Shown here: one piece after another, positions 13,295 to 37,655 of the stretch | How positions within the stretch are numbered: the first letter of the stretch is position 1 | Layout: every line of letters starts with the position of its first letter | DNA from: Thermoplasmatota archaeon | GTDB lineage: Archaea; Thermoplasmatota; Penumbrarchaeia; Penumbrarchaeales; Penumbrarchaeaceae | Direction of reading: 5' to 3' | Assembly (NCBI GenBank): GCA_029762535.1 | Contig: JARVGK010000002.1 | Coordinates: 64,001-128,000 of the forward strand | Length of the DNA: 64,000 bases | Notes under the pieces: model-generated | Database searches by the model: none | What the model saw: the letters and a program-made list of their open reading frames with translations, nothing else | Told to the model about the DNA's origin: nothing | Translations under genes and position numbers: made by a program

Positions 13295-13345
13295 AATTTG
13301 GGTCGAACGAAGTGCAACGAGTGGACCACATGGCCGAGATGTAAT
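13295..13345. repeat. Degenerate half of an attC-like repeat
   Basis: aatttgggtcgaacgaagtgcaacgagtggacc closely matches aatttgggtcgagcgaagtgcaacgagcgagcc of the 21917 and 22780 sites. Confidence 0.7.
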
Positions 13346-13439
13346 AGACACGATCGATGGCTGATATTATTCCCCGCCACACAGAAGGAATACACAGCAT
13401 AGCGCGAATGATGTGAACGATCAATTATCAGAGACATGT

Positions 13440-13802
13440 TCATTCTGACCAAACTGAGTCTTCATTATCGTCGGGCCGATTAATCTTAAAAACCAGTAGG
13501 CGAAATGGCAGATCCGATCTATTCCAGAGATTATGCACCTCTCTGGGAGAGCACACGAACGCGTCACCTGGTTTCGCAAGGTATTGAGCCTCGTCGATAA
13601 ATATGTGGCACTCTCCGGATAGGATGTAAAAGACCTCCGTCTGAATATTGTGATAGTGAGCACGCTGTTTGGTGTGGGGAGGGATCGTAACTTCCTGAAG
13701 CATGTGGCCACCCGGTGGTAGATCCATCGTATCGAACAGTACTCGCTTGGAGTAGTCTTTGCGAACATCTGGTGTGACCGAAGACAGAGAGCTTTGTTTC
13801 AT
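13440..13802 (-). CDS. Cupin domain protein (cassette-like, between att remnants)
   Basis: HYHNIQTEVFYILSG and PREVHNLWN cupin motifs. Confidence 0.9.
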   Translation of the reverse strand: MKQSSLSSVTPDVRKDYSKRVLFDTMDLPPGGHMLQEVTIPPHTKQRAHYHNIQTEVFYILSGECHIFIDEAQYLAKPGDAFVCSPREVHNLWNRSDLPFRLLVFKINRPDDNEDSVWSE

Positions 13803-13840
13803 ATGGGATCCAACCTATTATCAATTGATCTTAGAATATT

Positions 13841-13938
13841 TCCATCAACGGCCGCGAGTATGCGGAGTCCTGGGCGCAGTGATGGATTTGGGTGAGGGGC
13901 GATCAGCGCCCCGAACTTTATACTCGCGAGTTAAAGGA
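13841..13938. repeat. attC-like hairpin (distal)
   Basis: AAC-ggc-CGCGAGTAT...atttgggtgagggg...ATACTCGCG-a-GTT; same architecture as the proximal sites. Confidence 0.8.
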
Positions 13939-14261
13939 AACGAACGTAGTTATCCCGCAGGATAACGTATTGAGAGCGGAGCATGGCACGGAGCGAAGCG
14001 AAGTGAGCTTTTCGTCTGCGAAGATCATACAGCTGACGTAGTTATTTCTTGCTCTATTTATCGTTCAGATCCTCCGTGAGGGGGTTCGATACACACTTTT
14101 GTGTCATGGTATTATGGATGTCGGAGAACTCAGATAAAGGAATTGGAGATGGCATCAAATTACCTGACGATGTGCATCAGGCGTAAGCAACGAAAAGTAT
14201 ATCTTCATGGCGTCCATGCGTAACACGAATTATAATATTGTGCCACCTGGAGATGACACAC

Positions 14262-14873
14262 ATGACGAACCTTGAGAAAATGCTCATTGAGGCGGGCCGG
14301 TTCCACGGCCACATCTGCCCAGGACTGGCCATCGGAGTGGTGGCTTCTTACATTGCTCTTCGTGACGCGCGGCGTTCCGATGACGAGGAATTGGTGGCCA
14401 TCGTGGAGAATGATGCTTGCGGTGTTGATGCCATTCAGCACCTCACCGGATGCACCTTCGGCAAGGGAAACCTTGTGTTTCGGGACCATGGCAAGTCCGT
14501 CTATACATTCCTGAACCGAGCCACAGGCAAGGCCCTGCGCCTTTCTCTCGACCATTCCGCGATCGAAAGCAGCTTGCACGATCGTGAATTGTTCGAAAGC
14601 GTCCGCAATGGAACCGCAACTCCAGGGGAGATAGATGCGTTTCATGTTCGCTGGGAGGAGCGCGCCAGGGAGGTCCTTTACCGTGCTGGATCACTTTTCA
14701 AGGTCGATCAGGTGGACATTGCCTTCCCTGAGAAGGCCCGGATACATGACAATATTACTTGTGATAAGTGCAAAGAGCAAGTAATGGCCACCCGGATCGT
14801 GGAGACGGAACAGGGGCGCAAATTCTGCATACCATGCTCCGAAGAGAAAAAAGAAAAGGAGTATGGAAAATGA
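14262..14873 (+). CDS. fmdE: FmdE family protein (formylmethanofuran dehydrogenase subunit E-like) with C-terminal zinc finger
   Basis: FHGHICPGLAIG, ENDACGVDAIQHLTGCTFGKGNL, CDKCKE...CIPC. Confidence 0.85.
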   Translation: MTNLEKMLIEAGRFHGHICPGLAIGVVASYIALRDARRSDDEELVAIVENDACGVDAIQHLTGCTFGKGNLVFRDHGKSVYTFLNRATGKALRLSLDHSAIESSLHDRELFESVRNGTATPGEIDAFHVRWEERAREVLYRAGSLFKVDQVDIAFPEKARIHDNITCDKCKEQVMATRIVETEQGRKFCIPCSEEKKEKEYGK

Positions 14874-15964
14874 AAAGAGCAAATCCAAGCTTCGCCACGT
14901 TGGGGCTGCTGCTAACTGTGTCGATCCTCTCCGCAGGATGCTTGAACGTCGAAACGGAAAATGATGGCGAAATGAAGGAGATCACGGACCTGCTTGATCG
15001 AAAAGTTGACGTTCCTGTTGAAGTGGAGCGCGTTGTTGGGGTCGCTTCGGGGACGGTCAGAATGCTGACATACCTTGAAGCAACCGACATGATCGTGGGC
15101 GTGGAGGACGTTGAGACCACGCCTCCCATGACGCCCTACCAGTTCGCCCATCCGGACCTGAAGGACCTCCCCGTTATTGGACCACAGCACGGAGGCGATG
15201 CGGAACTCATAATGGTCCAGCAGCCAGATGTGATCTTCCACTCATGCTCGCAGTTCGAAACGGCCACCGGGGCGATGATGGACGATCTCCAGACGAAGAC
15301 AGGCATACCCGTCGTGGCCATAGACCTTGGTGATCTTGGAGAAAGGCGGGCAGTTTTCGATCGATCCCTGCGCCTCATAGGGGATATTCTGGGAAAAGGC
15401 GATAGGGCAGGGGCGGTCATCTCCTACATCGACAAAGTTCTTGAGGATCTTGAAGATCGGACCTTTGATATACCGGATGACATCAAACCTTCGGTCTACG
15501 TTGGTGGAGTTGCGCTTCGAGGCTCCCGGGACATTCTATCGACGCGGGCGGACTATCCTCCTTTCGAGTACACCAACGTGAACAACGTCGCCTCGTCGGT
15601 GGGCACCGGGCATATGTTCCTCGATAAGGAACAACTTTTGGCCTGGGATCCCGACATTCTGTTCGTCGACTCCATGAGTTACGACCTTGTTGTTGATAGA
15701 ATGACCAATGATACCGCCTATTCCCTGCTGTCGGCCGTTGTCGAAGGCGACATATACACCGTCATGCCATACAATTCATATAACAACAATTTCGCGACGG
15801 TGCTGGCCAACTGTTACTTCGTTGGGTCGGTAGTGTACCCGGATGGTTTTGCAGATGTGAACGTCACGGCCGAGGCAGATGAGATATACTCCGCCATGTT
15901 GGGAGCGCCCGTATATGAGCAGATGGCAAAGAAATACCATGGGTTTGAAAAGATCGACCTTTAA
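14870..15964 (+). CDS. Iron/cobalamin-type ABC transporter substrate-binding lipoprotein
   Basis: LSAGC lipobox, ITDLLDRKV, LLAWDPDILF, LSAVVEGDIY; ATGA overlap with fmdE. Confidence 0.85.
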   Translation: MKRANPSFATLGLLLTVSILSAGCLNVETENDGEMKEITDLLDRKVDVPVEVERVVGVASGTVRMLTYLEATDMIVGVEDVETTPPMTPYQFAHPDLKDLPVIGPQHGGDAELIMVQQPDVIFHSCSQFETATGAMMDDLQTKTGIPVVAIDLGDLGERRAVFDRSLRLIGDILGKGDRAGAVISYIDKVLEDLEDRTFDIPDDIKPSVYVGGVALRGSRDILSTRADYPPFEYTNVNNVASSVGTGHMFLDKEQLLAWDPDILFVDSMSYDLVVDRMTNDTAYSLLSAVVEGDIYTVMPYNSYNNNFATVLANCYFVGSVVYPDGFADVNVTAEADEIYSAMLGAPVYEQMAKKYHGFEKIDL

Positions 15965-15991
15965 AATGACTGAAAACTCGGGAAGTTCCAT

Positions 15992-17071
15992 ATGACAGAC
16001 CATAACTCTTCACATAAGCCCCGAGACCCGATCGCACAGCACAGGAGGCAGAACCTCTTAAGGAGAATTTTGCTGCTGACAGGGGCCATCCTATTGGGGC
16101 TGGTGGCCATGTACGCCCTCACCCTGGGACCGTACCCGATGACCATGATCGATGTTTTCAATGCATTCATTGGTAATGGATCGGATGTCCATCGGACCGT
16201 GATATGGAACATCCGTATGACGCGCATCGCCACCGCCATATTCGCAGGCGCCGCCCTGGCCGTTTCCGGGATGGTAATGCAGAACGTCCTTCGCAACCCC
16301 CTGGCATCACCATCGACACTGGGGGTCTCCCACGCCGCGTCCTTCGGGGCCGCCTTCGGAATCGTTGTCCTCGGCGCGGGCACCACACAGGCCCACTCAG
16401 TGTACTTCGACCACCCCTATTTATTGGCTTTATGCGCATTCGCCGCGGCCATGATTTCCACCGGAGTCATAATCCTGCTAGCGCGGATCAGGGATGCATC
16501 ACCCGAGACCATGATCCTGGCCGGCGTGGCCATGGCATCCCTGTTCACCGCAGGAACCACCTCACTTCGGTACTTCGCCAGTGATGAGGTGCAGCTATCA
16601 TCCATCATATTCTGGACCTTTGGTGACCTGGGCCGGACCGATTGGACCTCTGTGTCCATCATTTCTGTGGGCACCGTAGCCACCCTCATCTACTTCTTCC
16701 TCAATCGCTGGCGATACAATGCGATCAACGGCGGAGAGGATGTAGCCCGCACCTTGGGGGTCAATACCAATCGAACCCGCATATTGGGTCTGCTTATCTC
16801 ATCCCTCCTGACCGCTCTGGTCGTCTCCTTCGTGGGCATTATCGGGTTCGTTGGTCTGGTTGTTCCTCACATCGTTCGGCGCGTGGTTGGAACAGACGCC
16901 CGCTTTCTCATCCCCGGGTGCTGTATCGCCGGTGCCCTCCTCCTTCTGGTATCCGACACCGTCGCCCGGACTATGCTCTCACCCGTCATCATGCCGGTTG
17001 GGATCCTCACCTCATTCCTCGGGGCTCCACTTTTCATCTATCTCATCATCAGGGGGCGGAAGCATTGGTAG
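15992..17071 (+). CDS. FecCD/BtuC-type ABC transporter permease
   Basis: MQNVLRNPLASPSTLGVSHAA, GIIGFVGLVVPHIVR, PVGILTSFLGAPLF. Confidence 0.95.
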   Translation: MTDHNSSHKPRDPIAQHRRQNLLRRILLLTGAILLGLVAMYALTLGPYPMTMIDVFNAFIGNGSDVHRTVIWNIRMTRIATAIFAGAALAVSGMVMQNVLRNPLASPSTLGVSHAASFGAAFGIVVLGAGTTQAHSVYFDHPYLLALCAFAAAMISTGVIILLARIRDASPETMILAGVAMASLFTAGTTSLRYFASDEVQLSSIIFWTFGDLGRTDWTSVSIISVGTVATLIYFFLNRWRYNAINGGEDVARTLGVNTNRTRILGLLISSLLTALVVSFVGIIGFVGLVVPHIVRRVVGTDARFLIPGCCIAGALLLLVSDTVARTMLSPVIMPVGILTSFLGAPLFIYLIIRGRKHW

Positions 17072-17862
17072 ATCTCGTCACCCTCGATGATGTCTCGTTC
17101 GCTTACGGGAAGATACAAGCACTGAGTGATATCACTCTTTCCTTTCGGACAGGTTCACTGGTAGGCATGATCGGTCCCAATGGATCGGGAAAGACAACCC
17201 TCATAAGATGCGTTTGTAGGCTTGTCAGGCCCGAAAATGGAACCGTGACGATCAATGGCAGGGACCTCTCATCACTGAACAGTCTTGATCTGGCCCGCAT
17301 GGTGGGGTATGTGCCCCAGATGCAGGAGAAGGCCTTTCCAGTGCCTATATTCGAAGCTGTTCTTGCGGGGCGCATACCTCATCTGGGATGGGCTCCTTCG
17401 GACCATGATCTTGCCATAGTCAAAAACGTCCTGGAACTCATGGACCTGGAAGATATCTCCCAGAGGAACATCAACACACTCAGTGGGGGACAGATGCAGC
17501 GCGTACAAATCGCCCGCGCCCTGGCCCAGGAACCCCTGGTATTGTGCCTTGATGAGCCCACCAGCAATCTGGACATCAAGCATCAACTGGGGCTCATGCG
17601 CATGGTACGAGATCTGACCCGGAAAAGAAAGATGCTGGCCCTCATGGCCATCCACGACCTAAACCTGGCATCTCAGTACTGTGACCGATTGGTCCTCCTC
17701 CAGAACGGTGAGGTCTTTTCCTCGGGAACACCACAGGAGGTCCTGACCCGGAAGAACGTCAGGAACGCATTCAATATCAACGTGGCCATTCACACCCACG
17801 GCGATCTGATACACATCGTGCCCGTGGAGAACACTGATCTCAGGAGGCTTGAACATACCTGA
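17065..17862 (+). CDS. Iron/cobalamin-type ABC transporter ATP-binding protein
   Basis: GPNGSGKT, LSGGQMQRV, LDEPTSNLD, IHDLNLA; probable TTG start overlapping the permease stop. Confidence 0.9.
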   Translation: MVDLVTLDDVSFAYGKIQALSDITLSFRTGSLVGMIGPNGSGKTTLIRCVCRLVRPENGTVTINGRDLSSLNSLDLARMVGYVPQMQEKAFPVPIFEAVLAGRIPHLGWAPSDHDLAIVKNVLELMDLEDISQRNINTLSGGQMQRVQIARALAQEPLVLCLDEPTSNLDIKHQLGLMRMVRDLTRKRKMLALMAIHDLNLASQYCDRLVLLQNGEVFSSGTPQEVLTRKNVRNAFNINVAIHTHGDLIHIVPVENTDLRRLEHT

Positions 17863-17866
17863 ATCT

Positions 17867-17933
17867 TCTGGCAACCCGGTCCAAGGATGGAGTGGGTGCC
17901 ACCCTCGAAGATCCATGGCCGTGGGTTATCCGA
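17867..17933. repeat. Degenerate att-like hairpin
   Basis: aacccggtccaaggat...atccatggccgtgggtt, followed by gttatccgatccga, which is identical to the sequence at 22008. Confidence 0.45.
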
Positions 17934-17952
17934 TCCGAACGGAGTGATCCAT

Positions 17953-18050
17953 TAGGATAACGGGTGGGGACATGCGACGTTGCCGAAGGCAATGTCCCCC
18001 TGGGCGCAGCGGCCCGCAGGGGCGCGGAGGCGTGTCCGCAAGTTAGACAA
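17953..18050. repeat. attC-like hairpin
   Basis: ataAC-ggg-TGGGGACATGC-gacgtt...GCGTGTCCGCA-a-GTTag, followed by the conserved gcgagagcgcag linker. Confidence 0.75.
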
Positions 18051-18161
18051 CCCGAGAGAAGCGAGAGCGCAGTGTGGTCGTGCACCGCATCCGAAGGCGA
18101 GGAGCGCAGAAGTTTCTAATTCTCCTGAACCACAGGGCTTGGCGTAGTTTTCAATAACCGG

Positions 18162-19544
18162 TTATGTTTCGTGAGGGGGAGTCTCATCCACCACTAACTC
18201 ATACCAGACATTGTTCCCACCGCCCTTTTTCACAATCTTGCCTTCCCTGATAAGTTCATTCAGGTCACGGAGGGCGGTGCCTCTGTGAATAGAGAAATGA
18301 TATTCAATGTCTTCTGCCATTATTCTCTCTTTAGCTTCAATAAAGTCCATAATCCACTTCAATCGATTTCCTTTGCGTTTGTTCCGCATTTGTATCTGTT
18401 CTTTGTCCGTTCTGTGCCCGATTTCCTTCGGTTCAGCTTCGGATTTGCTTCGGATGTCACGATGGAAGACGGCACTGAAAAAAGAACCAATCTCAAAATC
18501 GATTCCGAGATCGTACTCTTTCATCGATTTTCTCATCCTTTTAATGCCGGAGCCAGCTTTTTCCACCAGACCAAGTCTGTGAACCATGTCAGTTAAGAGA
18601 GGGTTTCTCTGAGCACTCCGTTTCCCCAGGTCTTCTTCCGGAAACAACAGCTTTCCCGGGTTCACTATTTCCACCCGCTCGGGGCTGATGTGTACCTGGA
18701 TGTTCGAGGAATAGAGATAATCCCTGTGTATCATTGCGTTTATGATGGCCTCCCGCAGGGCATCTTTCGGAAGCTCCAGCTTCGCGGTATGTTTCAGGCC
18801 GTCGATGATTATGGCAGTGTTCAGCTTTGACAGAAGATAATTGTTGGCGTCGTTCAGATTGGTGGCGAAGTCTACAGAGAATTCCTTCGAGTCTATGATA
18901 TCGATCTGCTCTTTATCGGCATACAGGAAGCAGGCCACCGTCGCATTGGGGAAATGTGATTTTACGTCCTTGGAAAAGAACAGAACGCCGCAGTTGTTCA
19001 GCTTTCCATTGGTCAGCAGGTTCAGGTTGCTCAGAATATGCTCTTTCGACAGGTCGCCGTCCAGCCCTGCTTCCTTCCGGAATCTGGCAAACGCGTCTTC
19101 TGAGAAATCCCGGTCTTTGAAATCAATGGTGTTTCTCTCGAAGGAGATGAGGTTCTCCTTCTGGAACAGTTCCCTAATCTCGTCCCTGTTCAGCTACTGG
19201 GAATTGGCGCCGTACCTCAGATAGAAGTGGCCGTTCACGGTGTAGGGCTTGTCCTTCCCTTCCGAGACGTATATCACCACCATATCTCTAACCTGCTCGA
19301 TCCGGGCATTGAAGGCGGGGTTCATGTTCCTGGCGATGTCTTGGATCTTCGACCTGTCGGAATTGGTCAGCTTGTAGCCTTTTATATCACCGGTCCTATC
19401 CTCAACACCGATTATTATCTTACCGCCGGAGGAGTTGGCAAAAGCACAGATGTCCTTTTCGATGGTACTGCTCAGCGACTCCTTCAGCTCGATGGTGTAG
19501 CCCTCACCGGTTTTCACGACATCAACAAGTTCTTCGTAGTTCAT
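18162..19544 (-). pseudogene. Schlafen/AlbA_2 + HATPase_c_4 + wHTH protein (RecG-like regulator family) interrupted by one in-frame TAG
   Basis: ORFs 19194-19544 (GEGYTIELKE, ICAFANSSGGKIIIGV) and 18162-18938 (ALREAIINAMIHRDY, RNPLL, EKAGSGI) are in the same frame; only the TAG at 19194-19196 separates them. Confidence 0.85.
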
Positions 19545-19678
19545 ATCTCAACCCCGAGTTGTTCTTCCATCATGATCTCGAACTGCCTTGAGATTAGCAA
19601 CCCCTTCTTCTTGCAATGCTCTTTGTATTTGTCGTATAGATCGGAATCCACGCTCAAAGTGACGTTTCTTGACGGCAT
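19541..19678 (-). CDS. Small RHH/CopG-like protein (45 aa), cassette leader gene copy 1
   Basis: Manual translation MPSRNVTLSVDSDLYDKYKEHCKKKGLLISRQFEIMMEEQLGVEI; ATGA overlap with the next gene; two homologs in this window. Confidence 0.85.
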   Translation of the reverse strand: MPSRNVTLSVDSDLYDKYKEHCKKKGLLISRQFEIMMEEQLGVEI

Positions 19679-19914
19679 GTTATCACATTCACAGGTAAAT
19701 GTCTGCATTGTTATTTAAATGTGTATGATCCGTAACCCACCCTCACTCCGGTTATTGAAAATTTAAATCGAGAGTTAGCGAGCCATTTAATGTGTGTTAT
19801 GCCTGGTTGCGTAGCAACCGAGTATCTGTTTCTTCTGGTGTTTCGTTAAACGAAGCCAAGCCCGTTTCTGGTGGTTCAGGTTCCACGATTAAAAGGAGGG
19901 GAAAATTAGGATTT

Positions 19915-19985
19915 TCGGATAACGGACGCGGCTAACCGAAGTTCGTGGGGAGAAGGTGCTTTAGCACCCGAAGCCTTAAAATGAG
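19915..19985. repeat. Damaged attC-like site (left arm intact, right arm deleted)
   Basis: tcggataacggacgcggctaaccgaagtt matches the left arms of other sites; only ttaaaatga remains of the expected gttaaatga core. Confidence 0.65.
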
Positions 19986-20133
19986 GTCGAGGCTTCGGTT
20001 CCGAAAATCATCCTGCCGCCGTAGTTTTTTCTTGCTCTGTTTTTATTCATCTTTTCGTTATCCGTCGTGGGGGGTGTTCCGGTATTCTCTATTCTGCTTG
20101 TTTTTTTCCAAAATGCCTCAATACTCGTATGCT

Positions 20134-21542
20134 TCATATAATCTCCCAGCGTCCTTCCTTTCGACCGCCCGTGCGTCTGAGCAAACCATCGGATTGCAGT
20201 TTTTGGATGTTTCGTTCTATTGATCGTTCAGTAACTCCTATAAGAGAAGCCAGTTCAGGAATTGTTATTGTGTCGTTCTTTTCGATCTCCTGCAATATCT
20301 TTCCTGACGTTTTTCCAACGCTTTCCCGACGCTTTCTCTGGCGATTCCTGTATATAAAAGCGGAATCGCGGTAGTGAATACCGGTCCATCCATATACTTT
20401 GGAACGCCGTCGGGCGTGTAATGAGGTAGATACTTCCCGATATTCATCATCCCGGATCCAATTTCTTCCACCCAGCTCAGTTGTGCAAAGAACTTTGCAA
20501 TAACGGGATTCTTGGAGAAGGGCACCACTTTTTCGGGGTCAAGGACTCCCTCGACCCTGTAGTTGCTTGCGTTAGTGGTTTCTACACGATCTTTGTAAAT
20601 TATCAATCGGGCTGGATGGGCGTTCATGTATTCGCGATGCACCAGAAAATTAGCAATAACTTCCCGGAATATCTTATCGCGTAGACTTATCCTAGCGTCT
20701 CCTTCCAGGTAAAATGGGTCTGGAAGATGTTTGGCAATAAAGGCCATGAGCCGGTCGTATGCTTCAATGAGATTGCAATCTATACGGTCGCGGTCGTCAT
20801 AATGGTCCATCTGAACCCGGCGAACCATGGCATCGATCTTGTAATGAGGTAAAACACTCCGTATGGTCTCGTCTTTTCCCAGTAGCAGGATGGCAGCAAG
20901 GGTATAGCCCTCATTCCCGGTTTCCTGATCCTTTCTGAAAAGCCCGGCCTTGAGCAACAGCTGCTCATCGTCCAATTCTCTCCACGGATGATTCGGTCCA
21001 CGGGTTAATATGAGATTACGAAGCCTGGGCAGCATGTCCAAACGCAAATCGTCAAGAGTTGTGGCAGAATAAATTATGTTCTCGGTGTATGTCGCCCGCT
21101 TCCGGTTACTAATCTCCGCGATCCGGTGGGGCTGGGTCACACGGAAATCGCCATCATTGCTTCGGTCGAAGACAACACCGTTGGTTTTATGCACCTAGGA
21201 ACTAGCAGGCACTGAAATATGCATGATCTTCTTTCCATCAAGAACATGTATAACGGGATGGAGGATGAACGGCGGATCCAGCTTTTGAGTATTATTGGAA
21301 AGATTGACCATATCTGTTTTCATCTTATCGATGGATTGCGGATCGATTCCCAATACCCTTCCTTGATCATCAACTCCGAGAAGAATGTCTCCTCCGTCCC
21401 GGTTCAGCATTGCACATATTGTTTCGAATAAACTCGTGGGAAGAGATTTTCTTGCTTCCTTGTATTCTACCCGGATACCCTCGCCCATTGCAAGCAGATG
21501 TTTAAGGCGAATTTGCATCGGGTCACTTTGCATTTTTCTCAT
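20134..21542 (-). pseudogene. Schlafen/AlbA_2 + HATPase_c_4 + wHTH protein with in-frame TAG and C-terminal frameshift
   Basis: VPASS*VHKT with TAG at 21195-21197; IFREVIANFLVHREY; the HTH ILQEIEKNDTITIPELASLIGVTERSIERNIQKL...RWEII lies in another frame ending at 20134. Confidence 0.85.
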
Positions 21543-21672
21543 CCTCTTTCATCTGTTCTTCCATCATGATCTCGAACTGTCTTGATATGAGCCAACCTTT
21601 CCTTTTACAGTAATCTCTGTATTTATTATAGAGATTTTCATCGAACCTTAAAGTAACGTTCTTTGAAGGCAT
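21523..21672 (-). CDS. Small RHH/CopG-like protein (49 aa), cassette leader gene copy 2
   Basis: Manual translation MPSKNVTLRFDENLYNKYRDYCKRKGWLISRQFEIMMEEQMKEDEKNAK. Confidence 0.85.
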   Translation of the reverse strand: MPSKNVTLRFDENLYNKYRDYCKRKGWLISRQFEIMMEEQMKEDEKNAK

Positions 21673-21916
21673 TTTAATCACTCACTGCACATACTTACAA
21701 ATGCATATAAATGCATCATTTTTGTTATATGACACCCCCCCCACGCCCGTTGAGCAAGAAAAATTTGGGTGAGCGGAGCGAACCATTTAACCGGTGTTAT
21801 ACTGGGTTGCGAAGCAATCTGGCACATGTCGTTATTCTCTTTTCGTGTGGGTTAAACGAAGGCGGCAGGAATAGATGATTTTCGCTTGTCTGGCCAATGC
21901 CGGGAGACGAAAAATT

Positions 21917-22016
21917 TCATTTAACGGACGCGACTATGCGAAGTTGCGTAGCGAAGCGGAGCAATTTGGGTCGAGCGAAGTGCAACGAGCGAGCCGTATA
22001 GTCGCGAGTTATCCGA
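21917..22016. repeat. attC-like hairpin
   Basis: ttAAC-gga-CGCGACTATGC-gaagtt...aatttgggt...gcc-GTATAGTCGCG-a-GTTat. Confidence 0.9.
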
Positions 22017-22060
22017 TCCGAGCTATGCGAGGATGAGCATCTTTGATGCGAACGTCGGGT

Positions 22061-22713: not shown

Positions 22714-22730
22714 ATGATTACCACACAGGC

Positions 22731-22755
22731 ATATGTGATATCACATATTTATTAA
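22731..22755 (-). promoter_or_regulatory. TA promoter: TATA-like box plus perfect 18-bp palindromic operator
   Basis: atatgtgatatcacatat (22731-22748) is self-complementary and abuts TTAATAAA on the minus strand upstream of the antitoxin ATG. Confidence 0.7.
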
Positions 22756-22779
22756 TTGCCGTAACCACTGAACCCGATG

Positions 22780-23143: not shown

Positions 23144-23174
23144 TAATATTCTCCTGTAAAAATGCTGGTCAATT

Positions 23175-28928: not shown

Positions 28929-31405
28929 TTCTTTTCCTCCTTATTATTCGAAATTAAATTCCAGTTTACGCTTCCACAATTACATCTTACGCCACTTTGT
29001 TTCATTCCATCTGCTGTAATTTTCAATATACCACCACAACTATGACATGAAAAGAGATAATATAAATCTTGAAATGCCTCTTTTATAGGTCGAAAGTCTT
29101 TATCACTAAAGTTTATCCAATTATTAAAATGAACGTTTGCATTAATTCCCCATTGTTCAGCATATGTGCGTTTATAAATGCTAGAACGCATTGAATCTAA
29201 TTCTTCAAATTTTGCCGTCTTTTCTGATTTTTCCCAGGAAACTGATGATTTTTTAGCCTTTTTAATTAAGTCCTTATATCCATCCATTAATGGTATTGTA
29301 AAATCACCAAGATCTAGCTGGCCGTTTAATTTGTATCGTACTCGTATCTGTAATGAATCACACACTAGCCCAAAATACTCTTCCAAACCGCGTCTTAATC
29401 TCGAAGCAGCAGAAGGAACATCGTTTCTTGTCAAATCTTCTTCAATTTTACTCCAGAGGTCTGCTTGAAGATTTACTTGAGGCCCTGTATCAACTTTCCA
29501 ATTATAGAATTCAACCATGCAACTCTTATTATCAACAACTCCTTCACTTCTCATTTGATTAGCCCATGTCTTATCATGGGTTGTGATTAAAAATTGTCTG
29601 TTTGGGAAATTTGATGCAAGCACGCGACAAATATCTCGCCTATGATTCGAATCCACAGACATTATTACATCATCTAAGATAATGAGGTCAATAAGACCTT
29701 CTGCCAAACGTTCAGATAGAGCCAAATATAAACAAAGCCCCATACTATCTTGATGACCTTCACTGTGGAGGGCTTGTGGAGAAAAAGCCCCTCGGCCATA
29801 AAAATCAACTTCAAATTTTAATGCCGCCCCATCTGGTGAAATAGTCGCGGAAAAATCTTTTTCGTCTGAACCATGTAATTCTTTATATAATTGCACAAAG
29901 CGATCATTTACATCTTTGTAAAGATTTCCCAATATAGTATCTCTGGAATATTCAAATGTATTTAACAATATCTCTGCTTTTTTATATGAGATACTTGCGT
30001 TTTTAAAATCATTTTTTGCTTTTTCAAGACCTTTTAAATTTTCTTCAAGGCGTGTTAATGTATCCCACGCAGTTTGTTCAGGGGTTATCGGTGGCGCTTT
30101 GGTTTTAACAATTTCTATTAGAGTTTGAAGATTTTGTTTAATTTCCTCAGAAATAAGCATGTGTTTTACTCTGTCGCTATCAAATTCGATCAATGGATAT
30201 TTTTCGAGTGGATTAGCTAATGCTATGGATAACTGATTCAAATCTGACGAACATGTTTTCAATTGGATGCTCCATTCCTTTTCCTCAATTTTATTTAATA
30301 CCTCAATTATTTTATTTATGCTTCCTCTTGTATTGTTCACACGCTTTGATATGGAATCGGACAAAGATGTAATTCTGTTTCTTTGTTGTGATATTTCTTC
30401 AATATCAGTCAATTTTGAGGTAAGATATTCATCTAATTTACCGCTTGGCCACTGTGTATCACACAATGGGCAGTTACCCGTGTCATCGATCATAGATTTT
30501 CCAAGTTCAATTAATTGAAATCGATTGTATGTTTTCAATAATTTCGGATTCGATTTTATAGAGTTTAGAAGATTTCTAAGTTCTTTATCAAATTCAATGA
30601 TTCCTTTTTGATTCTTTTCGTCAAAGGAATTATGAATATTTTGAATATCTTTTTCAAATATAGTAAGATTGACATGATTGTCGTTGATAATACTGGTAGG
30701 TGGCGTAAGGGCCTTTTTTAACGTATCTGAAGAAACCGAATTCAATTCATTACTTTTTAATGTTTTACGTAATTGATTTACGTAATCCAGTAGCATCTTT
30801 TCATTAAATGATGTTGTTTGAATTGTTGCGTTAACCTCACCTTTTTTCTCATCTATTGCTTCTTCTTTTGTCTGCTTTTCTCTTTTAAAAGTATTTTCAA
30901 TATTTACAAATGCTTTTCTTATTATTTCAATGTCTGATATATTTAATAATGCTTGAATCTCCTGGGCACGTGTACTACCATCAGAGGTAATATATTTTAA
31001 AATTTCTCGTCTTGTTAATACATGTTCTCCCCTCGATGCAAGGGATAAAATGGGTTCAAGATTAGGTAAATATTTTTCATCAGATACAACTAACTTAGTG
31101 GGTTGTGCCATATCTCTTTTTATTTCAATAGGAACATTAATTTTTGGAAATTGAATAACTGCACGTACAATAGCATCTTTTGGCTTGTGATCAATATGTG
31201 GGCCACATTCTTTCAATTTGATATTGCGAGTTCCCTCTCCCTTTAAACGAGAAATTCGACCTGTTAAGAGGAAATCAATGGCATCAACAACAGCACTTTT
31301 CCCTGAACCATTTGGCCCCCATATTACTATATTTTTTCCTTGGGGCGTTAGTTTTATATGGGTTATACCCCGCACATTTTCAATTTCAAGCTCAATCAGT
31401 TTCAA
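28925..31405 (-). CDS. Rad50/SMC-like ABC ATPase with zinc hook and possible C-terminal HEPN (RloC-like)
   Basis: GPNGSGKS, coiled coils, CPLC hook, HSEGHQ signature, ILDDV, ITTHD; C-terminal LRRGLEEYF...INANVH. Confidence 0.7.
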   Translation of the reverse strand: MKLIELEIENVRGITHIKLTPQGKNIVIWGPNGSGKSAVVDAIDFLLTGRISRLKGEGTRNIKLKECGPHIDHKPKDAIVRAVIQFPKINVPIEIKRDMAQPTKLVVSDEKYLPNLEPILSLASRGEHVLTRREILKYITSDGSTRAQEIQALLNISDIEIIRKAFVNIENTFKREKQTKEEAIDEKKGEVNATIQTTSFNEKMLLDYVNQLRKTLKSNELNSVSSDTLKKALTPPTSIINDNHVNLTIFEKDIQNIHNSFDEKNQKGIIEFDKELRNLLNSIKSNPKLLKTYNRFQLIELGKSMIDDTGNCPLCDTQWPSGKLDEYLTSKLTDIEEISQQRNRITSLSDSISKRVNNTRGSINKIIEVLNKIEEKEWSIQLKTCSSDLNQLSIALANPLEKYPLIEFDSDRVKHMLISEEIKQNLQTLIEIVKTKAPPITPEQTAWDTLTRLEENLKGLEKAKNDFKNASISYKKAEILLNTFEYSRDTILGNLYKDVNDRFVQLYKELHGSDEKDFSATISPDGAALKFEVDFYGRGAFSPQALHSEGHQDSMGLCLYLALSERLAEGLIDLIILDDVIMSVDSNHRRDICRVLASNFPNRQFLITTHDKTWANQMRSEGVVDNKSCMVEFYNWKVDTGPQVNLQADLWSKIEEDLTRNDVPSAASRLRRGLEEYFGLVCDSLQIRVRYKLNGQLDLGDFTIPLMDGYKDLIKKAKKSSVSWEKSEKTAKFEELDSMRSSIYKRTYAEQWGINANVHFNNWINFSDKDFRPIKEAFQDLYYLFSCHSCGGILKITADGMKQSGVRCNCGSVNWNLISNNKEEKK

Positions 31406-31595
31406 GTTCTTCCCTCGAAGTAGTTTTTAATACGCTGATAATTTTTTTAGTATCAGCTAATTGTCCTGTTGAATTAAGTTCACGAAGCTTATTGATGGTC
31501 ACCACATTAAATTCATCTTTATCATTGAGGTCTGAAAACATTTTATCAAGTATGTGGTCAATCAATGAAGATGTTTGTATTGTTTCGGGAGTCAT
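31392..31595 (-). CDS. Small hypothetical protein translationally coupled to the ATPase
   Basis: 67-aa ORF overlapping both neighbours, with a GGAGGT SD. Confidence 0.65.
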   Translation of the reverse strand: MTPETIQTSSLIDHILDKMFSDLNDKDEFNVVTINKLRELNSTGQLADTKKIISVLKTTSREELETD

Positions 31596-31732
31596 TTATT
31601 TACCTCCTTCATCTGTTCTTCCATCATAATTTCAAATTGTCGGGATATGAGCCACCCCTTCTTCTTACAGAATCCTTTGTATCGTTCGTAAAGGTCTTCA
31701 TCAACACTGAGGGTTACGTTCTTTGAAGGCAT
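31592..31732 (-). CDS. Small RHH/CopG-like protein (46 aa), cassette leader gene copy 3
   Basis: Manual translation MPSKNVTLSVDEDLYERYKGFCKKKGWLISRQFEIMMEEQMKEVNK; ATGA overlap; CTTATATA TATA box upstream. Confidence 0.85.
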   Translation of the reverse strand: MPSKNVTLSVDEDLYERYKGFCKKKGWLISRQFEIMMEEQMKEVNK

Positions 31733-31993
31733 GATAATCACATTCATCTCCAAATGTCAGCAAATGTATATAAGTATTCGCTTTTTCCGTTTCTATTCGT
31801 TGTTCGGAACACCCCCCACGTCCATAGAGTAAGAAAAAATTTGGGTATTCGCTTTGCGAATCCGTTTAACATCCGTTAGCCGAGAGTCTGGACTTGTCCA
31901 GATTTTGGTGGTTCTTTCCGTCTTGTTTCCGTTAAACGAAGGCAACAACGTCATGAATTTACGGTCTCCTTTTCATAGGCATGGTTTCAAATT

Positions 31994-32111
31994 GAAGATA
32001 ACGGAACGCGGGTATGCGAAGTGAATATGTTTCCAGTGCGGTTCCTCAGCAGAGTATTCATTTGGGAGAGCGAGTGCAACGAAGCGAACCGCATACCCGC
32101 GTGTTAAGTCC
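31994..32111. repeat. attC-like hairpin (most proximal)
   Basis: atAAC-gga-ACGCGGGTATGC-gaagt...atttggga...aacc-GCATACCCGCGT-GTTaag: perfect 12-bp stem with a 3-nt bulge next to the core. Confidence 0.9.
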
Positions 32112-32434
32112 TCCGAATGAAGTTATCCTACGGATAACGAAATGAGAATGCAATGAGATCGAGCACCGCAGACCGTTAGGTTGAGGAGCGGAGAAGTTGG
32201 CCAGCCAAGAACGTTGTTCGGGACACGGTGGATTTTTTACTACCAATCTACCCCACAAGGGTTATAGGTCGAGGGTGTCTTGCTTGTAAGTCGAGGGGTT
32301 TGAAATACTTGTCAAACCAAGATTTGACCATGGCGAGGTTTACTATCTTTTGGGTTATCGTTCTGACCATTATTATTTTAGAGTTGCAATATGATTTGTT
32401 CAAATTTTCTGATGAATTCGTAAGTAAAAGAGAT

Positions 32435-35400
32435 TCAATCCTCCTCCTTTATTGGTTTGATGGTTCGAAGGTTCAAAGAAAAAGATCGCCCCTCGATATT
32501 TTCTTCTGGGATATCATCATATCTCGTTATAATAACCTTATCATCAACTTTATCACTGAGGTTTTCCACATTCCATAACTCCCATCGATCCCCACCTTCT
32601 TCCTGACTTAAAAGGAATTCCACATATTCCCTAGAGGTTATGTTTACAATTTTGGAAGAACCTAAATGTGCCTTGACTTCGATCTTAATTTGTTCTCTAT
32701 CACGAATAGCAATGATATCATAGCCTGGATTCTGTTTGGGCATTTGTTCAACTTCGAATCCTTTTAATTCTAACTCTCTTTGAGCAAATGATCTTCCTTT
32801 AGTTTCTATCATCTCATTGTCCTCATATGATGTTCTGTTCCCAGATTTGCCACCACCACCGCCACCAGATGAACCCTTAGTTTCCTCATCAACTCTCTCC
32901 TCTGTATTAACTTCATATTCAGAGTCGTCATCCTTTAATTGAATACCTTCATCTTCCTCTGAATCTGGAGTTCTTTCTTCTCTATTTTGCTCATCAAGTA
33001 ATTTTTCCTTATTGTCTTCTTCACTTTTTGTCGGTTGTTTCGGCTTTTTAGGAAGCATACCAGGAAATGGCTTCTTCGATGGTGGAGTTGACTTTTGTTG
33101 ATCAGAGTCTTTGTGTTTTACATAGTCGTTATTGAATTCTAAAAAAGAGATATCGATCTGTTCATCTGATATTCCGCTGGAAGTCAATTTTTCTCGTCTT
33201 TCGTAATCATTATTACACCTTAAAAGATTTTCATAAGTGTCGGCTTCTCCTGGCACTCCTAAATAAAACGATATTGATCGAGATATTGTAGTTACACTTT
33301 GTTTATCTTCACTTATGAATATTGTTGAACCAACAATGTAAAAATCTCCGGATATTTCGGTTTCATACTTATCAAGTAGTATCAATTTTTTTCGAATTTC
33401 CTTTTTTACTTTAACTTTGATATTTTTAATTCTTTGAATCAATTTCTGATGATCTGATAGTTTATCCGATCTTATCACATATATGTATGAAAGACTGTCA
33501 ATTAGATTTTTCGCCAATTCCGGTTTCAATTGTTTCTCATCATCATTTGTCTCAATTATTTCTTCCTTCAATATATTCTTATCACTAATTTGACGTTTTC
33601 CAAAATACTTACTTACAAACTGGTGATATCTTCTAGATATATTGAAAAAATAAACATCATTATTAAAAGCATTTTTAATCTCCACATCATCATTAATGAA
33701 TATCTCTTTGCTACTTATAATTTGAAATATATTGCTTCTTTCACATAAAAGGGGACAATCATGAAGCAATAATTCAGGAAGTGCTACCATCAAACTATTT
33801 GTTGTATCTAAACATCTTTCGTAGATTTTCATTATTTTGAATCTTAATTCTCGATTATCATTTATATCTTCATCTGAAATGAATTTTATTAATAGGTTGG
33901 ATAATATTTCTTTCCATTCTTCAGGTTTTAATTCATCAATATTTGTTCTAATAATTTTCACTTTATTCTTTAACCAATGAAAAATATTATCCTTTGAACT
34001 CTCAAAAAGATTTAAATTGATAACTGGTAATAAATACCCTATTTCAAAATTATCTTTTTCATTTAATATCCAACATTCTTCCAATGGTTTAGGATCTAGA
34101 TAATGTGTAAGAGGAGGTATGAACTTTGTTTTTAAATCAAACCACCATGATGCATCTGAGTTTCCATAATATAATGCTCTGTTGTATGGTCGATAGTGTA
34201 CTCGAATATTCATATATTCTTCATAGTATTCCCAATTGTTTGCTATTAACTTTAATAAGGATATTTTAGATTTTTCAGGCAATTCGTCTAAATTTATTTT
34301 ATCAAATCTTTTATTATAACTGATTTTTTCAACATTATTATAATCTTCATTCACATGTATCGGAATTTCTTCTGTAGAAATTAATCGGGGAAATGTTTTA
34401 CACCCTAACCATCTTAAGATATCTTGATCAATTATTTTCTCTAAGCTATTGTTTTCTTTTTGTACCCATTGTATATCGTAATGATTGCGAAATAATGAGT
34501 TCAAATCACTATTGCCCCATTCTTTTCCCATATATCCAAATTTGGCTTTTATCCATATAACATCTTTTTTCCCCTTCCTTCTAGATGGAATTGGACAATT
34601 TCTAATTCCTACGGGTGCATTTTCTTCTTTCATCAACCATTTATTTTTATAGATATATCGATAATATATTGAGGGATTATCTTTTTGATTCTTGTTCCTA
34701 CTATCCCAATAATTCTCAATAGCTTTAATTAAAGCTTTTTCTGTAACATTTTCAATTCTCTCTACACCCAATGTTGCTAGGATTTTGTTGACTGAATGAT
34801 GGTTTTCCAATAACTTATCCCCAAACCATTCATCAACAAACACTATCGGCATCCATTTAGGTACGAGATTTTTCTTGTCTTGATCAGATTTCCAAGTGAT
34901 GATTTGACCCTTTGAATTGGCAATTGATATCAGATGATTACCAACAGGAAGTATTGGTAGACTTTTTATAATCTCAATTTTCTCCTCTTCATTGATTTCA
35001 TCTGAATCATGATTAGCCCAATTAGAGAGCCATTTCCAACAAGTCCAAATCCAATCAATATTTCCTGTATTTTTAGATGACTCTTCATTGATTACACTTA
35101 GTAACGTATTATCATCAATCAAACTGCAGTTCATGGATTTTAAAACGTTATATGAAACTTCATTCTCCTCATAACTGAAATGTAACAAGTTGTCACTAAT
35201 ATTTGATGTATTTAAAATTTTACGGGCGTTTGTCAAATCACATGTTGTTGATATAAGCTTTATATCAGAGAAATTTAATAATTTTTCTCCATTAATATTG
35301 CCGAATTTTAAAGTGTTCTTTGAATAATCAACAATCACATCCCAAAATAATTTGGTGATTTCATGACTGTTTCTCTCCTCAAATGGTGATAACAATGTAA

Positions 35401-36532
35401 TATTATTTGCTGGATCACCTTTTAAATATTGCTCATCCACAAATTCAACTAATGTATGAACGAGATTATCCATTATCCATTTATTTAGATTATTATTCTC
35501 TATCGGAAGAATTTCCGTTCTATCACTTTTTACAAAAAAATCCGCATGAAGAAGTATTGGAACTGGGGAGTAGTGTTTTGTCGGATAATACACATGGATT
35601 TTTGGGTAATCGGTCATAGATCTGATTTTACCATCAATGACATATGTACCAACCAGGAAATTAATTCCATCTTCGATAATTCTCGCATTATCTTCTTTAT
35701 CAAGGTTAGATAAGAAATAAGGTGGAATCATATCACCCGACATCGTTTTTCGTTTGATTTTCCATTTCGTTACATCTTCAACGCCATCAATGGTATCATT
35801 GATTACATTTTCCTTATCTATTGTTATTTTCCTTAAGGTTTTACTTGAACCAACAGCATCAATTATCTCCAACATTCTAATATGATGAAATGTTAGGAGA
35901 GTATAATTTTTCAATGAAATTTTATCAAATAATACTTCGTTATCAATTTCCTCAAGATAATTCAATTTAACTACAGTTGACCAATCCGATTGAGAGGTTA
36001 GATATTGATCATTCAAAGAAATATCATCCCAGGATATCGAAAAAGGGATCCATTGATATGGTACATCATCATCTGGAAAACCATTATTTTGTAACCATTG
36101 TTTCGCCTTTTCAAATGAGAATTCTACTCCCTCTCCTCCTATGCTAAATATTTGTGGATTATTTGAAATCTCATAAACAGCTTTGAATCCTAATCCCTTT
36201 CTTCCGATGGTCCCAGATTTTTTAATTGAATAATCCGTTCCACACAAAGATTCAATAGCATCTGGCTGTAATCCTACTCCCTTATCCAAGATATAGACCG
36301 ATTTATCGGTCAACAAAACCTTTACCTCTTTAGATTCTGCATCATCACAATTTTGGAATAATTCGTAAAACCATCGTCCAGTGTGGTCAGAAGTTACTCT
36401 TTCTGCACTTCTTGTGTCTCTGATGATTCGTTTGGGATCTCCTTTATATGTCCCTTGTAATTTTTGGTTGAATAAATCAATTGCCTTTTTAATAGGTTTC
36501 AATATACTATCACCATCGACATACACAATCAT
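32435..36532 (-). CDS. Sacsin/Nov-like GHKL ATPase with C-terminal DUF3883 (PD-(D/E)xK) domain; first cassette
   Basis: YELFQNCDDA, IGRKGLGFKAVY, LLHADFFVKSDR; C-terminal PGYDIIA...KIEVKA; visibly AT-rich. Confidence 0.8.
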   Translation of the reverse strand: MIVYVDGDSILKPIKKAIDLFNQKLQGTYKGDPKRIIRDTRSAERVTSDHTGRWFYELFQNCDDAESKEVKVLLTDKSVYILDKGVGLQPDAIESLCGTDYSIKKSGTIGRKGLGFKAVYEISNNPQIFSIGGEGVEFSFEKAKQWLQNNGFPDDDVPYQWIPFSISWDDISLNDQYLTSQSDWSTVVKLNYLEEIDNEVLFDKISLKNYTLLTFHHIRMLEIIDAVGSSKTLRKITIDKENVINDTIDGVEDVTKWKIKRKTMSGDMIPPYFLSNLDKEDNARIIEDGINFLVGTYVIDGKIRSMTDYPKIHVYYPTKHYSPVPILLHADFFVKSDRTEILPIENNNLNKWIMDNLVHTLVEFVDEQYLKGDPANNITLLSPFEERNSHEITKLFWDVIVDYSKNTLKFGNINGEKLLNFSDIKLISTTCDLTNARKILNTSNISDNLLHFSYEENEVSYNVLKSMNCSLIDDNTLLSVINEESSKNTGNIDWIWTCWKWLSNWANHDSDEINEEEKIEIIKSLPILPVGNHLISIANSKGQIITWKSDQDKKNLVPKWMPIVFVDEWFGDKLLENHHSVNKILATLGVERIENVTEKALIKAIENYWDSRNKNQKDNPSIYYRYIYKNKWLMKEENAPVGIRNCPIPSRRKGKKDVIWIKAKFGYMGKEWGNSDLNSLFRNHYDIQWVQKENNSLEKIIDQDILRWLGCKTFPRLISTEEIPIHVNEDYNNVEKISYNKRFDKINLDELPEKSKISLLKLIANNWEYYEEYMNIRVHYRPYNRALYYGNSDASWWFDLKTKFIPPLTHYLDPKPLEECWILNEKDNFEIGYLLPVINLNLFESSKDNIFHWLKNKVKIIRTNIDELKPEEWKEILSNLLIKFISDEDINDNRELRFKIMKIYERCLDTTNSLMVALPELLLHDCPLLCERSNIFQIISSKEIFINDDVEIKNAFNNDVYFFNISRRYHQFVSKYFGKRQISDKNILKEEIIETNDDEKQLKPELAKNLIDSLSYIYVIRSDKLSDHQKLIQRIKNIKVKVKKEIRKKLILLDKYETEISGDFYIVGSTIFISEDKQSVTTISRSISFYLGVPGEADTYENLLRCNNDYERREKLTSSGISDEQIDISFLEFNNDYVKHKDSDQQKSTPPSKKPFPGMLPKKPKQPTKSEEDNKEKLLDEQNREERTPDSEEDEGIQLKDDDSEYEVNTEERVDEETKGSSGGGGGGKSGNRTSYEDNEMIETKGRSFAQRELELKGFEVEQMPKQNPGYDIIAIRDREQIKIEVKAHLGSSKIVNITSREYVEFLLSQEEGGDRWELWNVENLSDKVDDKVIITRYDDIPEENIEGRSFSLNLRTIKPIKEED

Positions 36533-36716
36533 ACTTTAATCGTGGACCTTTGTTTATTTTTGCGGTCATAAACATCATTTTCCGAACTTGTTCTATGCTT
36601 TTACCATATTTATAAGCTTCTTTGCTTTCACCCAAGCTCCATGTTATTACACCCTCAACCTATTCTTTCCAAAAAATCCACCGTGTCTTTTTACCCCGAA
36701 GTCTGGCTGGCCAATT

Positions 36717-36742
36717 GGACTTAACTCCTATCATGCGATGTG
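36717..36742 (-). other. attI-like primary recombination site
   Basis: ggacttAAC (minus strand G|TTAAGTCC) complements the first cassette's own core at 32103-32111. It has no hairpin partner, keeps a catgcgatgt motif like the att left arms, and lies ~130 bp upstream of the integrase. Confidence 0.75.
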
Positions 36743-36854
36743 TTGGATCGGATACTTTCACTTTCACATGGTTATTGCGAAGATTTATTAACCCGGGATC
36801 CTCCTTTGGTTTCATGGGATCATACCCGGACATGGATAAGGAGATGGTGAATAT

Positions 36855-37655
36855 ATGAATGTTTCCGAAAAGGGCAGGGAGAGAATGCTGGCTCGGCTGG
36901 ATGAGGAGATGAGGCTTCGGAAGTATTCGCCTGCGACAATGAAGCAGTATCTCGGATTCATCAAGAGGTTCCTTGATTCCGGATCCGATCCCCGGAGCTT
37001 CATGCTGGGTCTCTCCGACAGATGCTCACGATCCACGGTCCGATCCGCTTACTTCTCCCTGACGTTCTTCTATCGATATGTCCTTCATCAACCCTTCGAC
37101 GAGGGGATCCCCCTCGCAAAGCGCGGTGGGAGGCTTCCAACGGTACTCAATCGCGAAGAGGTCCATTCCATGATCGATAGCGCCGTGAACGTTAAGCACA
37201 AGGTCCTGCTGATGCTTCTGTATTATGGTGGCCTAAGGCTCAGCGAGGCTCGATCCCTGCGCTGGGAGGGTCTCGATTTCGAACGGGGGATCATCCATAT
37301 AAAGCACGGGAAGGGGGATCGGGATCGGGTCGTCTTTCTCCATTCCAGGCTTGCAGAGGCGCTTTCCGTATTGGGGGTTAAAAGCGAAGGTTGCGTATTG
37401 ATCTCTTCGGTCTCCAAAGGAGCCTATACACCAAGGGGTATCCAGTTGACTGTCGCGGATATCGCTAAACGGGCGGGGATAAAAAAGAGGGTCAGTCCCC
37501 ATACGCTTCGGCACAGCTTCGCGACCCATCTCCTTGAGGCCGGGGCTGACGTCAGGCACATACAGAAGCTTCTGGGGCACAGGAACCTGTCGACAACACA
37601 AGTATACACCCACATCGCCGACCGGGAAATGATCAGGATAGTTTCCCTGCTCTGA
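36855..37655 (+). CDS. Tyrosine recombinase/integrase (Xer/IntI-like, lacking the IntI-specific insertion)
   Basis: N-terminal LRKYSPATMKQY, RLPTVLNREEV, GLRLSE (R), GKGDRDR (K), HTLRHSFATHLL (HxxR), LLGH (H), TTQVYTH (Y); catalytic set intact. Confidence 0.95.
   Translation: MNVSEKGRERMLARLDEEMRLRKYSPATMKQYLGFIKRFLDSGSDPRSFMLGLSDRCSRSTVRSAYFSLTFFYRYVLHQPFDEGIPLAKRGGRLPTVLNREEVHSMIDSAVNVKHKVLLMLLYYGGLRLSEARSLRWEGLDFERGIIHIKHGKGDRDRVVFLHSRLAEALSVLGVKSEGCVLISSVSKGAYTPRGIQLTVADIAKRAGIKKRVSPHTLRHSFATHLLEAGADVRHIQKLLGHRNLSTTQVYTHIADREMIRIVSLL

Follow-up and report, generated by a model that had tools for sequence, protein, structure and literature searches.

A window of 64,000 nucleotides (nt), corresponding to positions 64001-128000 of contig JARVGK010000002.1 of a Thermoplasmatota archaeon of the family Penumbrarchaeaceae (assembly GCA_029762535.1; 2.96 Mb, 53% GC, 93% complete), carries the gene of a tyrosine recombinase of 266 amino acids (aa) next to an array of folded repeats, here called att sites, with accessory genes between them. 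This locus is very probably a chromosomal integron-like gene-capture platform that uses a Xer-type integrase. As judged from the sequence, it has an array of sites with a covarying fold, complementary cassette ends, a conserved attI, a break in strain homology at the predicted crossover point, and a linkage and orientation of sites and integrase that recur in other genomes; the 266-aa integrase would be the catalyst. The coordinates of all features are collected in Table 1.

Seven full sites of about 90 nt, together with degenerate and half copies, span 13.2-32.1 kb of the window. On the + strand the sites follow the pattern TAAC-(2-4 nt)-stem-GAAGTT-hairpin 1-AATTTGGGT-hairpin 2-(A/G)CC-stem'-(0-1 nt)-GTTA, and the bases at the junction (GAAGTT / ATTTGGGT / CC) are kept among the sites. 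A covariance model, R1, was built from six window copies and one copy of a relative. In a search of the whole genome this model returned all seven copies of the array (E <= 6e-5) and, on contig C6, a solo copy; a regular expression for the core motif matched the array locus only. The solo copy (C6:76539-76621, minus strand) scored 57 bits and has a degenerate 5' TAAC (GGAC); it lies near the contig end, and its neighbours are PIN/ribbon-helix-helix (RHH) toxin-antitoxin genes and an archaeal ATPase gene (PF01637/DUF234).

Folding of the sites as single strands gave a three-way junction composed of an outer stem and two hairpins. The same junction was recovered by RNAalifold, with compensatory changes in all three helices, and stem sequences vary from copy to copy with pairing kept. 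In a set of 51 R1 sites from more than 12 genomes, 92.7% of the structure cells were paired versus 29-44% when the partners were slid, and 165 cells carried double changes; none of 500 shuffles reached the observed values. One G.T pair is nearly invariant (49/51 sites), and with this pair left out of the count the stems contain 77 G.T versus 23 A.C. The strand used in the model folded more stably than its complement in 48 of the 51 sites (mean -18.3 vs -15.5 kcal/mol with DNA parameters). This better-folding strand is antisense to the cargo genes and corresponds to the 'bottom' strand of integrons. Hairpin 2 contains, by our own reading, a conserved tandem G.A-like internal loop. The original prediction, made from the sequence of the window, had described about ten related repeats beside an intact recombinase gene pointing away from them, with the pattern AAC-stem-GAAGTT-hairpins-stem'-GTT and with stems that differ but stay paired, and this description was correct. 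Its statement that the repeats lack canonical attC geometry held for the spacing, for the perfect stems without extrahelical bases and for the branched core, but not entirely, as an R-box-like AAC/GTT pair is present.

The cassette boundaries are marked by complementary ends. At the right end of a site stand 9 nt starting with GTTA, and their exact reverse complement, ending in TAAC, is found at the left end of the next site; four of the 9 nt are fixed and five are variable (the 'barcode'). This rule was found at 5/5 consecutive junctions in the window, with a chance match of ~1e-3 per junction. The two flanks of a single site do not match each other and the complementarity therefore spans the cargo. 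Such a pattern is expected if each unit was once a circle, with the ends flanking the site core and pairing. In cassette 7, GTTATCCGA at 17925 is complementary to TCGGATAAC at 19915, and in cassette 6, TTAAAATGA at ~19975 is a near-match to TCATTTAAC ahead of 21922; the rule fails in the eroded distal part (13235..17924). It was found again in genomes G004, G020, G035 and G351, in the closed genome G147 and on the Nanoarchaeota contig L002. In G351 and L002 it holds at attI too. The G351 variant CAAC covaries with GTTG, which places the exchange 3' of the first TAAC base. The array shares its polarity with integrons: attI is followed by the start of a cassette, its gene and the site belonging to it.

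The TAAC at 36722-36725 sits 130 bp upstream of the integrase start. The complementary partner at 36717-36725 leads into unique sequence and not into a site core; in other words, it is an attI. Upstream of related integrases (the clade described below) a motif consisting of N5-TAAC followed by TCCTATTA(A/T)GCGAAG...GGAGTTAT.CGAA was found in at least eight genomes, and TAACTCC and GGAGTTA within this motif can pair to form a hairpin. Four metagenomic contigs carry the gene of an integrase with 94% identity, followed downstream by the same genes as in the window (for a 365-aa protein and YjeF). All four contigs match the window DNA from the integrase leftward to exactly TAAC 36722. Beyond this TAAC two of the contigs continue with unrelated sequence and a different barcode, and the other two start precisely at TAAC; a scaffold gap in G004 falls at the attI TAAC as well. 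Since the homology breaks at exactly TAAC, it follows that the first cassettes differ between near-identical strains and are joined at the predicted crossover.

A relic att 3' arm downstream of the integrase stop is kept in the 94%-identical strain and is absent downstream of 12 other integrases of the clade. We considered the idea that the integrase gene is generally placed between split att arms, with attI on its 5' side and the relic (37745-37780) on its 3' side, and rejected it as a general feature because the downstream arm occurs only in this genome and its 94% relative.

The integrase matches Pfam PF00589 and PF13495. Against a cut-off of 265 it scored 187.1 bits with the IntI model TIGR02249, the match being split into two stretches that leave out the insertion, and 184.7 bits on the XerA equivalog model NF040815 (cut-off 220), on which the true XerAs of its relatives score 220-285. 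The protein is thus below both cut-offs, with nearly equal scores. An alignment with IntI1, two archaeal IntIs, XerAs and XerC/D showed that it holds the R, K, HxxR, H and Y residues, that it has a gap of ~40 aa at the IntI-specific insertion (the I2 helix region), and that its N-terminal domain is shorter. In a 48-sequence tree it was placed in a clade of 11 rows, with a support of 100 in the SH-like approximate likelihood ratio test (SH-aLRT), separate from the XerAs and from the IntI clade (100), which comprised IntI1 and nine archaeal IntIs of the phylum; this was a quick LG+G4 tree that does not resolve the deeper branching. An AlphaFold2 model (mean predicted local distance difference test 81.6) matched XerA (5HXY, E = 2.5e-15) and VchIntIA (2A3V, E = 1e-14, TMq 0.72) about equally well.

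The distribution of the clade was surveyed in 23 genomes of the same family and 401 of the phylum. It is patchy: members were found in 7/23 family genomes and 17/401 phylum genomes, G026 has two copies, and most family genomes, including ones that are 95-97% complete, have none. The integrase is therefore not a conserved housekeeping Xer. G020 holds a true XerA (230 bits) besides a clade member. Its classification as a housekeeping XerA was accordingly rejected on the sub-cut-off score, the separate clade, the patchiness and the coexistence with XerA in G020. In metagenomes there are thousands of homologues of 260-270 aa with 50-57% identity; the few with names come from Thermoplasmatota, Woesearchaeota, Nanoarchaeota and Altiarchaeales. 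In two metagenome-assembled genomes of Terriglobia a Xer-like gene is present in many copies (~22 and ~12 among the loci listed), all with the same identity of 40% to the query, which suggests a multi-copy mobile element built on a tyrosine recombinase.

Sites and integrase were also found linked outside this genome. Of the 12 contigs with both a clade integrase and R1 sites, 10 have the sites upstream of the integrase and on its strand. These linked contigs belong to G000 (this genome), G004 (three sites), G013 (two contigs), G026, G035, G147 and G351, and include L001 and L002, both from Nanoarchaeota. The end rule, the attI motif and the orientation are shared by other families of the phylum and by Nanoarchaeota. 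In G035, of the same class, 29 R1 sites are spread over many contigs (e.g. C45, C67 and C129), together with clade integrase fragments only; the contamination of G035 is estimated at 7%, and it may contain a very large or multi-locus array.

Canonical integrons are present in the same phylum, and the comparison with them was made using the IntI model and a second covariance model. No match to the IntI model at E <= 1e-40 was found in this genome or in any of the 23 family genomes; ten other genomes of the phylum have one. The contig G156:C16:1-17200 contains a canonical integron with an IntI of 416 bits on TIGR02249 and at least 11 canonical attCs, in which the cassette ends have the same topology as in the window array. 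The second model, R2, was built from 11 canonical archaeal attCs of G156 and serves as a proxy for the attC model of IntegronFinder, not as a replacement of it. R2 found six attCs beside the IntI of G201:C7 and no matches in the window, G004 and G035 arrays. Conversely, R1 gave no matches on the canonical arrays. Several expectations of the original prediction are borne out by these results: the 266-aa protein has no IntI segment; both the integrase clade (SH-aLRT 100) and the att fold, a covarying three-way junction, are different; tree, score (184.7 vs 220) and patchiness argue against a housekeeping XerA; the repeats go with the integrase, being found at this locus plus one solo copy and not genome-wide; and the two models applied do not recognize an ordinary integron (TIGR02249, 187 vs 265; nothing found in the window by the proxy R2).

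In the mechanism that we propose, the integrase would insert cassettes in circular form at the attI that adjoins the integrase gene, and would also excise them by att x att recombination. Each cassette would bring one ~90-nt att that folds on the strand antisense to the cargo genes. Strand exchange would take place inside the conserved AAC/GTT of a 9-bp R-box, which consists of TAAC/GTTA and the 5-nt cassette-specific barcode. By analogy with integrons, the substrate may be the folded single (bottom) strand, with the product resolved by replication. The branched junction might then replace the extrahelical bases and the I2 helix of IntI as the cue for strand and orientation. On the broader proposition that short Xer-type integrases acting on folded, branched single-stranded DNA (ssDNA) sites without an I2 helix form a second, widespread integron class in Archaea, we put the odds at about even.

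A number of points weigh against an integron-like platform. Recombination itself is deduced from sequence patterns. The integrase is the only full-length tyrosine recombinase in the 93%-complete genome, and for this reason a second role in chromosome dimer resolution is possible. Because the alignment used for covariation had been fitted to the model, and because the sites are related and not independent, the covariation figures given above overstate independence. Two multi-gene cassettes reach the very large sizes of 4.6 and 7.8 kb. Erosion affects the distal third of the array, where an ABC operon of host-like GC content lies on the opposite strand. R1-type sites were likewise found in 11 of 31 relatives without a clade integrase at E < 1e-80, and there are solo copies too. 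Finally, some families have a XerA-scoring gene with one R1-type site downstream on the other strand. Examples are G031:C146 and G034:C7 from sister families, where an above-cut-off XerA gene is followed 1-2 kb downstream by one R1-type site on the opposite strand; in G031 the site's own flanks are self-complementary. This layout is different and may link true XerA to the R1 site family.

The best surviving alternative, which we nevertheless consider unlikely, is accretion of units at a Xer site, as occurs with integrative mobile elements exploiting Xer (IMEX) and pdif modules. The cell's Xer would then carry out duplex recombination at a short TAAC core and the hairpins would be incidental or have another purpose. 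This would fit a protein that is Xer-like, has a near-equal score on the XerA model and finds its best structure match in XerA 5HXY. It would also fit the lack of any other full-length tyrosine recombinase found in the genome and the large multi-gene units, which resemble islands more than classic cassettes. However, a duplex core needs no 90-nt junction with compensatory changes, no complementarity of unit ends and no strand bias in foldability. The gene is moreover missing from most family genomes, some of them 95-97% complete, and G020 has a XerA besides.

Less probable still is that the array is a remnant of an ordinary integron, a cluster of attC sites lacking integron-integrases (CALIN), with divergent attCs served in trans by a canonical IntI and an unrelated Xer-like gene as neighbour. 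The AAC...GTT ends and the integron-like cassette topology would agree with this, as would the facts that archaeal integrons have so far mostly been CALINs (PMC9668308) and that canonical IntI is present in the phylum. Against it stand the missing IntI matches (E <= 1e-40) in this genome and the 23 family genomes, the two site families R1 and R2 that are not cross-detected, and the linkage of the Xer-like gene, attI and array, whose order and orientation do not change between genomes or between phyla. We give as little credence to the idea that the repeats are structured RNAs, terminators or elements like miniature inverted-repeat transposable elements (MITEs) among accessory genes: the strong covarying structure with many G.U-compatible pairs and the tandem G.A-like loop of hairpin 2 would suit it, but the repeats have no match in Rfam even at E <= 1 and are restricted to a single locus next to the integrase, strain homology breaks at TAAC, and the strand that folds better runs antisense to the cargo genes, so that the repeats are not mRNA 3' ends. 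Searched with Rfam at gathering thresholds, the whole window contained only two tRNAs, both outside the array, and at permissive thresholds (E <= 1) no family matched the repeats at 13.2-24.4 kb. A MITE would have direct target duplications, whereas the flanks here are complementary to each other in inverted orientation across the cargo; this reading was therefore rejected.

The preferred interpretation, an integron-like platform, can be compared with known systems. As in integrons, the integrase is transcribed away from a co-oriented array, attI adjoins the integrase, the crossover falls in a conserved AAC/GTT triplet and the cassette start is complementary to the cassette's own inverse core; the bottom strand folds better, and the cargo comprises toxin-antitoxin and defence genes. 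It differs from integrons in having an integrase without the IntI insertion and outside the IntI clade, and an att core that forms a three-way junction, in which the stems are perfect and free of extrahelical bases and the junction motifs are conserved. Further differences are the R-box, which is 9 bp long, has five variable nt and goes with a 2/1-nt spacer, an attI that can form a TAACTCC...GGAGTTA hairpin, and the lack of cross-detection between the canonical and new att models. With archaeal XerA (4A8E, 5HXY; NF040815) the integrase shares its size, two-domain architecture and catalytic motifs, and among solved structures XerA is its best match in both sequence and structure. It differs from XerA in its sub-cut-off score, separate clade, patchy occurrence and sometimes two copies; it sits beside an attI and a cassette array and, as far as can be judged (no search for dif was made), does not act at a 28-bp dif.

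In IMEX and in Acinetobacter pdif modules a Xer-family enzyme without the IntI insertion likewise moves units that lack their own recombinase. XerCD recombines the folded ssDNA attP of CTX phage, one of the IMEX, so a folded single strand can serve a Xer enzyme as substrate. In contrast to IMEX and pdif modules, the recombinase gene described here is linked to a dedicated attI and a long array, and the sites are ~90-nt branched structures with a 9-bp R-box instead of dif-like 28-mers with two ~11-bp arms and a 6-8-bp spacer.

The cargo genes between the repeats had been predicted to be co-oriented on the minus strand, and this was correct except for the + strand operon at 14238-17862. That operon encodes an FmdE-like protein and periplasmic-binding, FecCD and ABC ATPase components, has a host-like GC content of 52-56% and is flanked by eroded att sites; it may have been captured, or may be backbone that a rearrangement left behind. 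A GNAT acetyltransferase gene follows directly past the distal end of the array. The 24-36 kb block has 30-35% GC versus 53% for the genome, and the composition of the array cargo is foreign. The toxin-antitoxin pairs, restriction-modification (R-M) genes, defence-like genes and cupin gene are typical of the cargo of sedentary integrons. The AlbA_2 and HATPase_c_4 units of cassettes 6 and 7 are paralogous. Three cassettes share a paralogous header (19549-19687, 21543-21681 and 31603-31741) that encodes an RHH-like protein of ~46-53 aa; each header is preceded by an att 3' half, and the headers lead different defence-like cargos. A cassette of G020 has the same two ends as cassette 2, with a cargo of 2.5 kb versus 7.8 kb. 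When the array was compared by blastn with all fetched loci, similarity was confined to att sites, RHH headers and cassette ends, and no whole cassette common to two genomes was found. The array also contains mini-hairpins of the form GTTATC(C)-N3-5-(G)GATAAC (13949-13966, 17944-17961, 22891-22908, 22936-22950, 23310-23326 and 32122-32138), which resemble a paired R-box that lacks a core. Of 11 matches to this form in the whole genome, the array accounts for six, and most of these follow an att site on its right at a distance of 15-60 nt. The gene mcrA was not found in the genome.

Table 1. Features of the array and the integrase locus, in window coordinates.
Feature	Position	Strand	Remarks
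Eroded distal part	13235..17924		half-site, full att, cupin gene 13440-13802 (-), FmdE/ABC-transporter operon 14238-17862 (+)
3' half att copy	13290-13345		weak R1 match spans 13235-13343
att, full copy	13846-13933		found by R1; in eroded distal part
Cassette 7	17925..19919	-	RHH header, AlbA_2, HATPase_c_4; 3' half-site ends GTTA 17925-17928
att, divergent copy	17958-18045		R1 31.2 bits; just inside cassette 7
3' half att copies	~19760-19800, 21762-21800, 31838-		
Cassette 6	19920..21921	-	RHH header, AlbA_2 (Schlafen-type), HATPase_c_4
att, degenerate copy	19920-~19995		5' half kept; in cassette 6
att of cassette 5	21922-22011	+	R1 97.1 bits
Junction	22008 / 22780		variable 5 nt TCCGA
Cassette 5	22012..22784	-	PIN_2 toxin and 77-aa partner
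att of cassette 4	22785-22874	+	R1 89 bits; outer-stem 3' arm mutated, stem broken in fold
Junction	22871 / 23175		variable 5 nt AGTTC
Cassette 4	22875..23179		305 bp, no open reading frame >=60 aa, two GTTATC..GATAAC mini-hairpins
att of cassette 3	23180-23269	+	R1 93.5 bits
Junction	23266 / 24088		variable 5 nt TTCGC
Cassette 3	23270..24092	-	MazE-like antitoxin and PIN toxin
att of cassette 2	24093-24177	+	R1 77.2 bits; DNA fold z = -5.6
Junction	24174 / 31994		variable 5 nt TCTTC; cassette 2 ends GTTATCTTC and GAAGATAAC
Cassette 2	24178..31998	-	small RHH header gene, SMC-like ATPase, type III R-M methylase, res helicase; ~33% GC
att of cassette 1	31999-32106	+	R1 72.6 bits; three-way junction
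Junction	32103 / 36717		variable 5 nt AGTCC; GTTAAGTCC after att vs GGACTTAAC at 36717-36725
Cassette 1	32107..36721	-	1365-aa HATPase / NOV_C protein (gene 32435-36532); 30-35% GC
attI-like site	36722..36854	+	crossover TAAC 36722-36725, then TCCTAT..ATGCGA .. GGTTATTGCGAAG
Integrase, 266-aa tyrosine recombinase	36855..37655	+	intact; transcribed away from array
Relic att 3' arm (..GGGTCGCATAGATGAGT-GTTA)	37745-37780	+	downstream of integrase stop

The archaeal integrons described by Ghaly et al. (2022; PMC9668308) have an IntI with the additional domain and canonical attCs; 539 attCs and 6 IntIs were reported, mostly as CALINs. The motif ATTTGGG was not found in the supplements of that paper, where sequences may not stand as text. 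Smyshlyaev et al. (2021; PMC8138268) noted that the insertion is not fully conserved in an 'integron-like' subgroup of simple tyrosine recombinases, so that relatives of IntI without the insertion are already known as sequences; the part of that paper covered here describes no cassette arrays, att sites or attI for these members. Escudero et al. (2020; PMC7790495) regard the I2 helix as the innovation by which single-strand recombination became possible. No published description of this combination of integrase and site was found in the literature covered, which was incomplete, and as far as that literature was searched a Xer-type integrase with a three-armed site in an integron layout is a new combination.

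Integrons are defined and searched for by the IntI insertion and the canonical attC model. If a parallel system is missed by both, cassette capture in archaea is much under-counted. If the proposed platform is real, it would challenge the required role of the I2 helix and extrahelical bases in the recombination of folded ssDNA. If, beyond this, the second integron class exists, many archaeal attC clusters without an integrase and many genes annotated as 'XerA/XerD' would belong to platforms of this type, and the capture of genes in the integron manner would either be older than IntI or have originated twice. The system would also provide a compact pair of recombinase and site, with a 266-aa enzyme, a ~90-nt site and a programmable 5-nt barcode. 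For the host archaeon the platform probably is a store of anti-virus functions, since the cargo consists mostly of defence and toxin-antitoxin genes.

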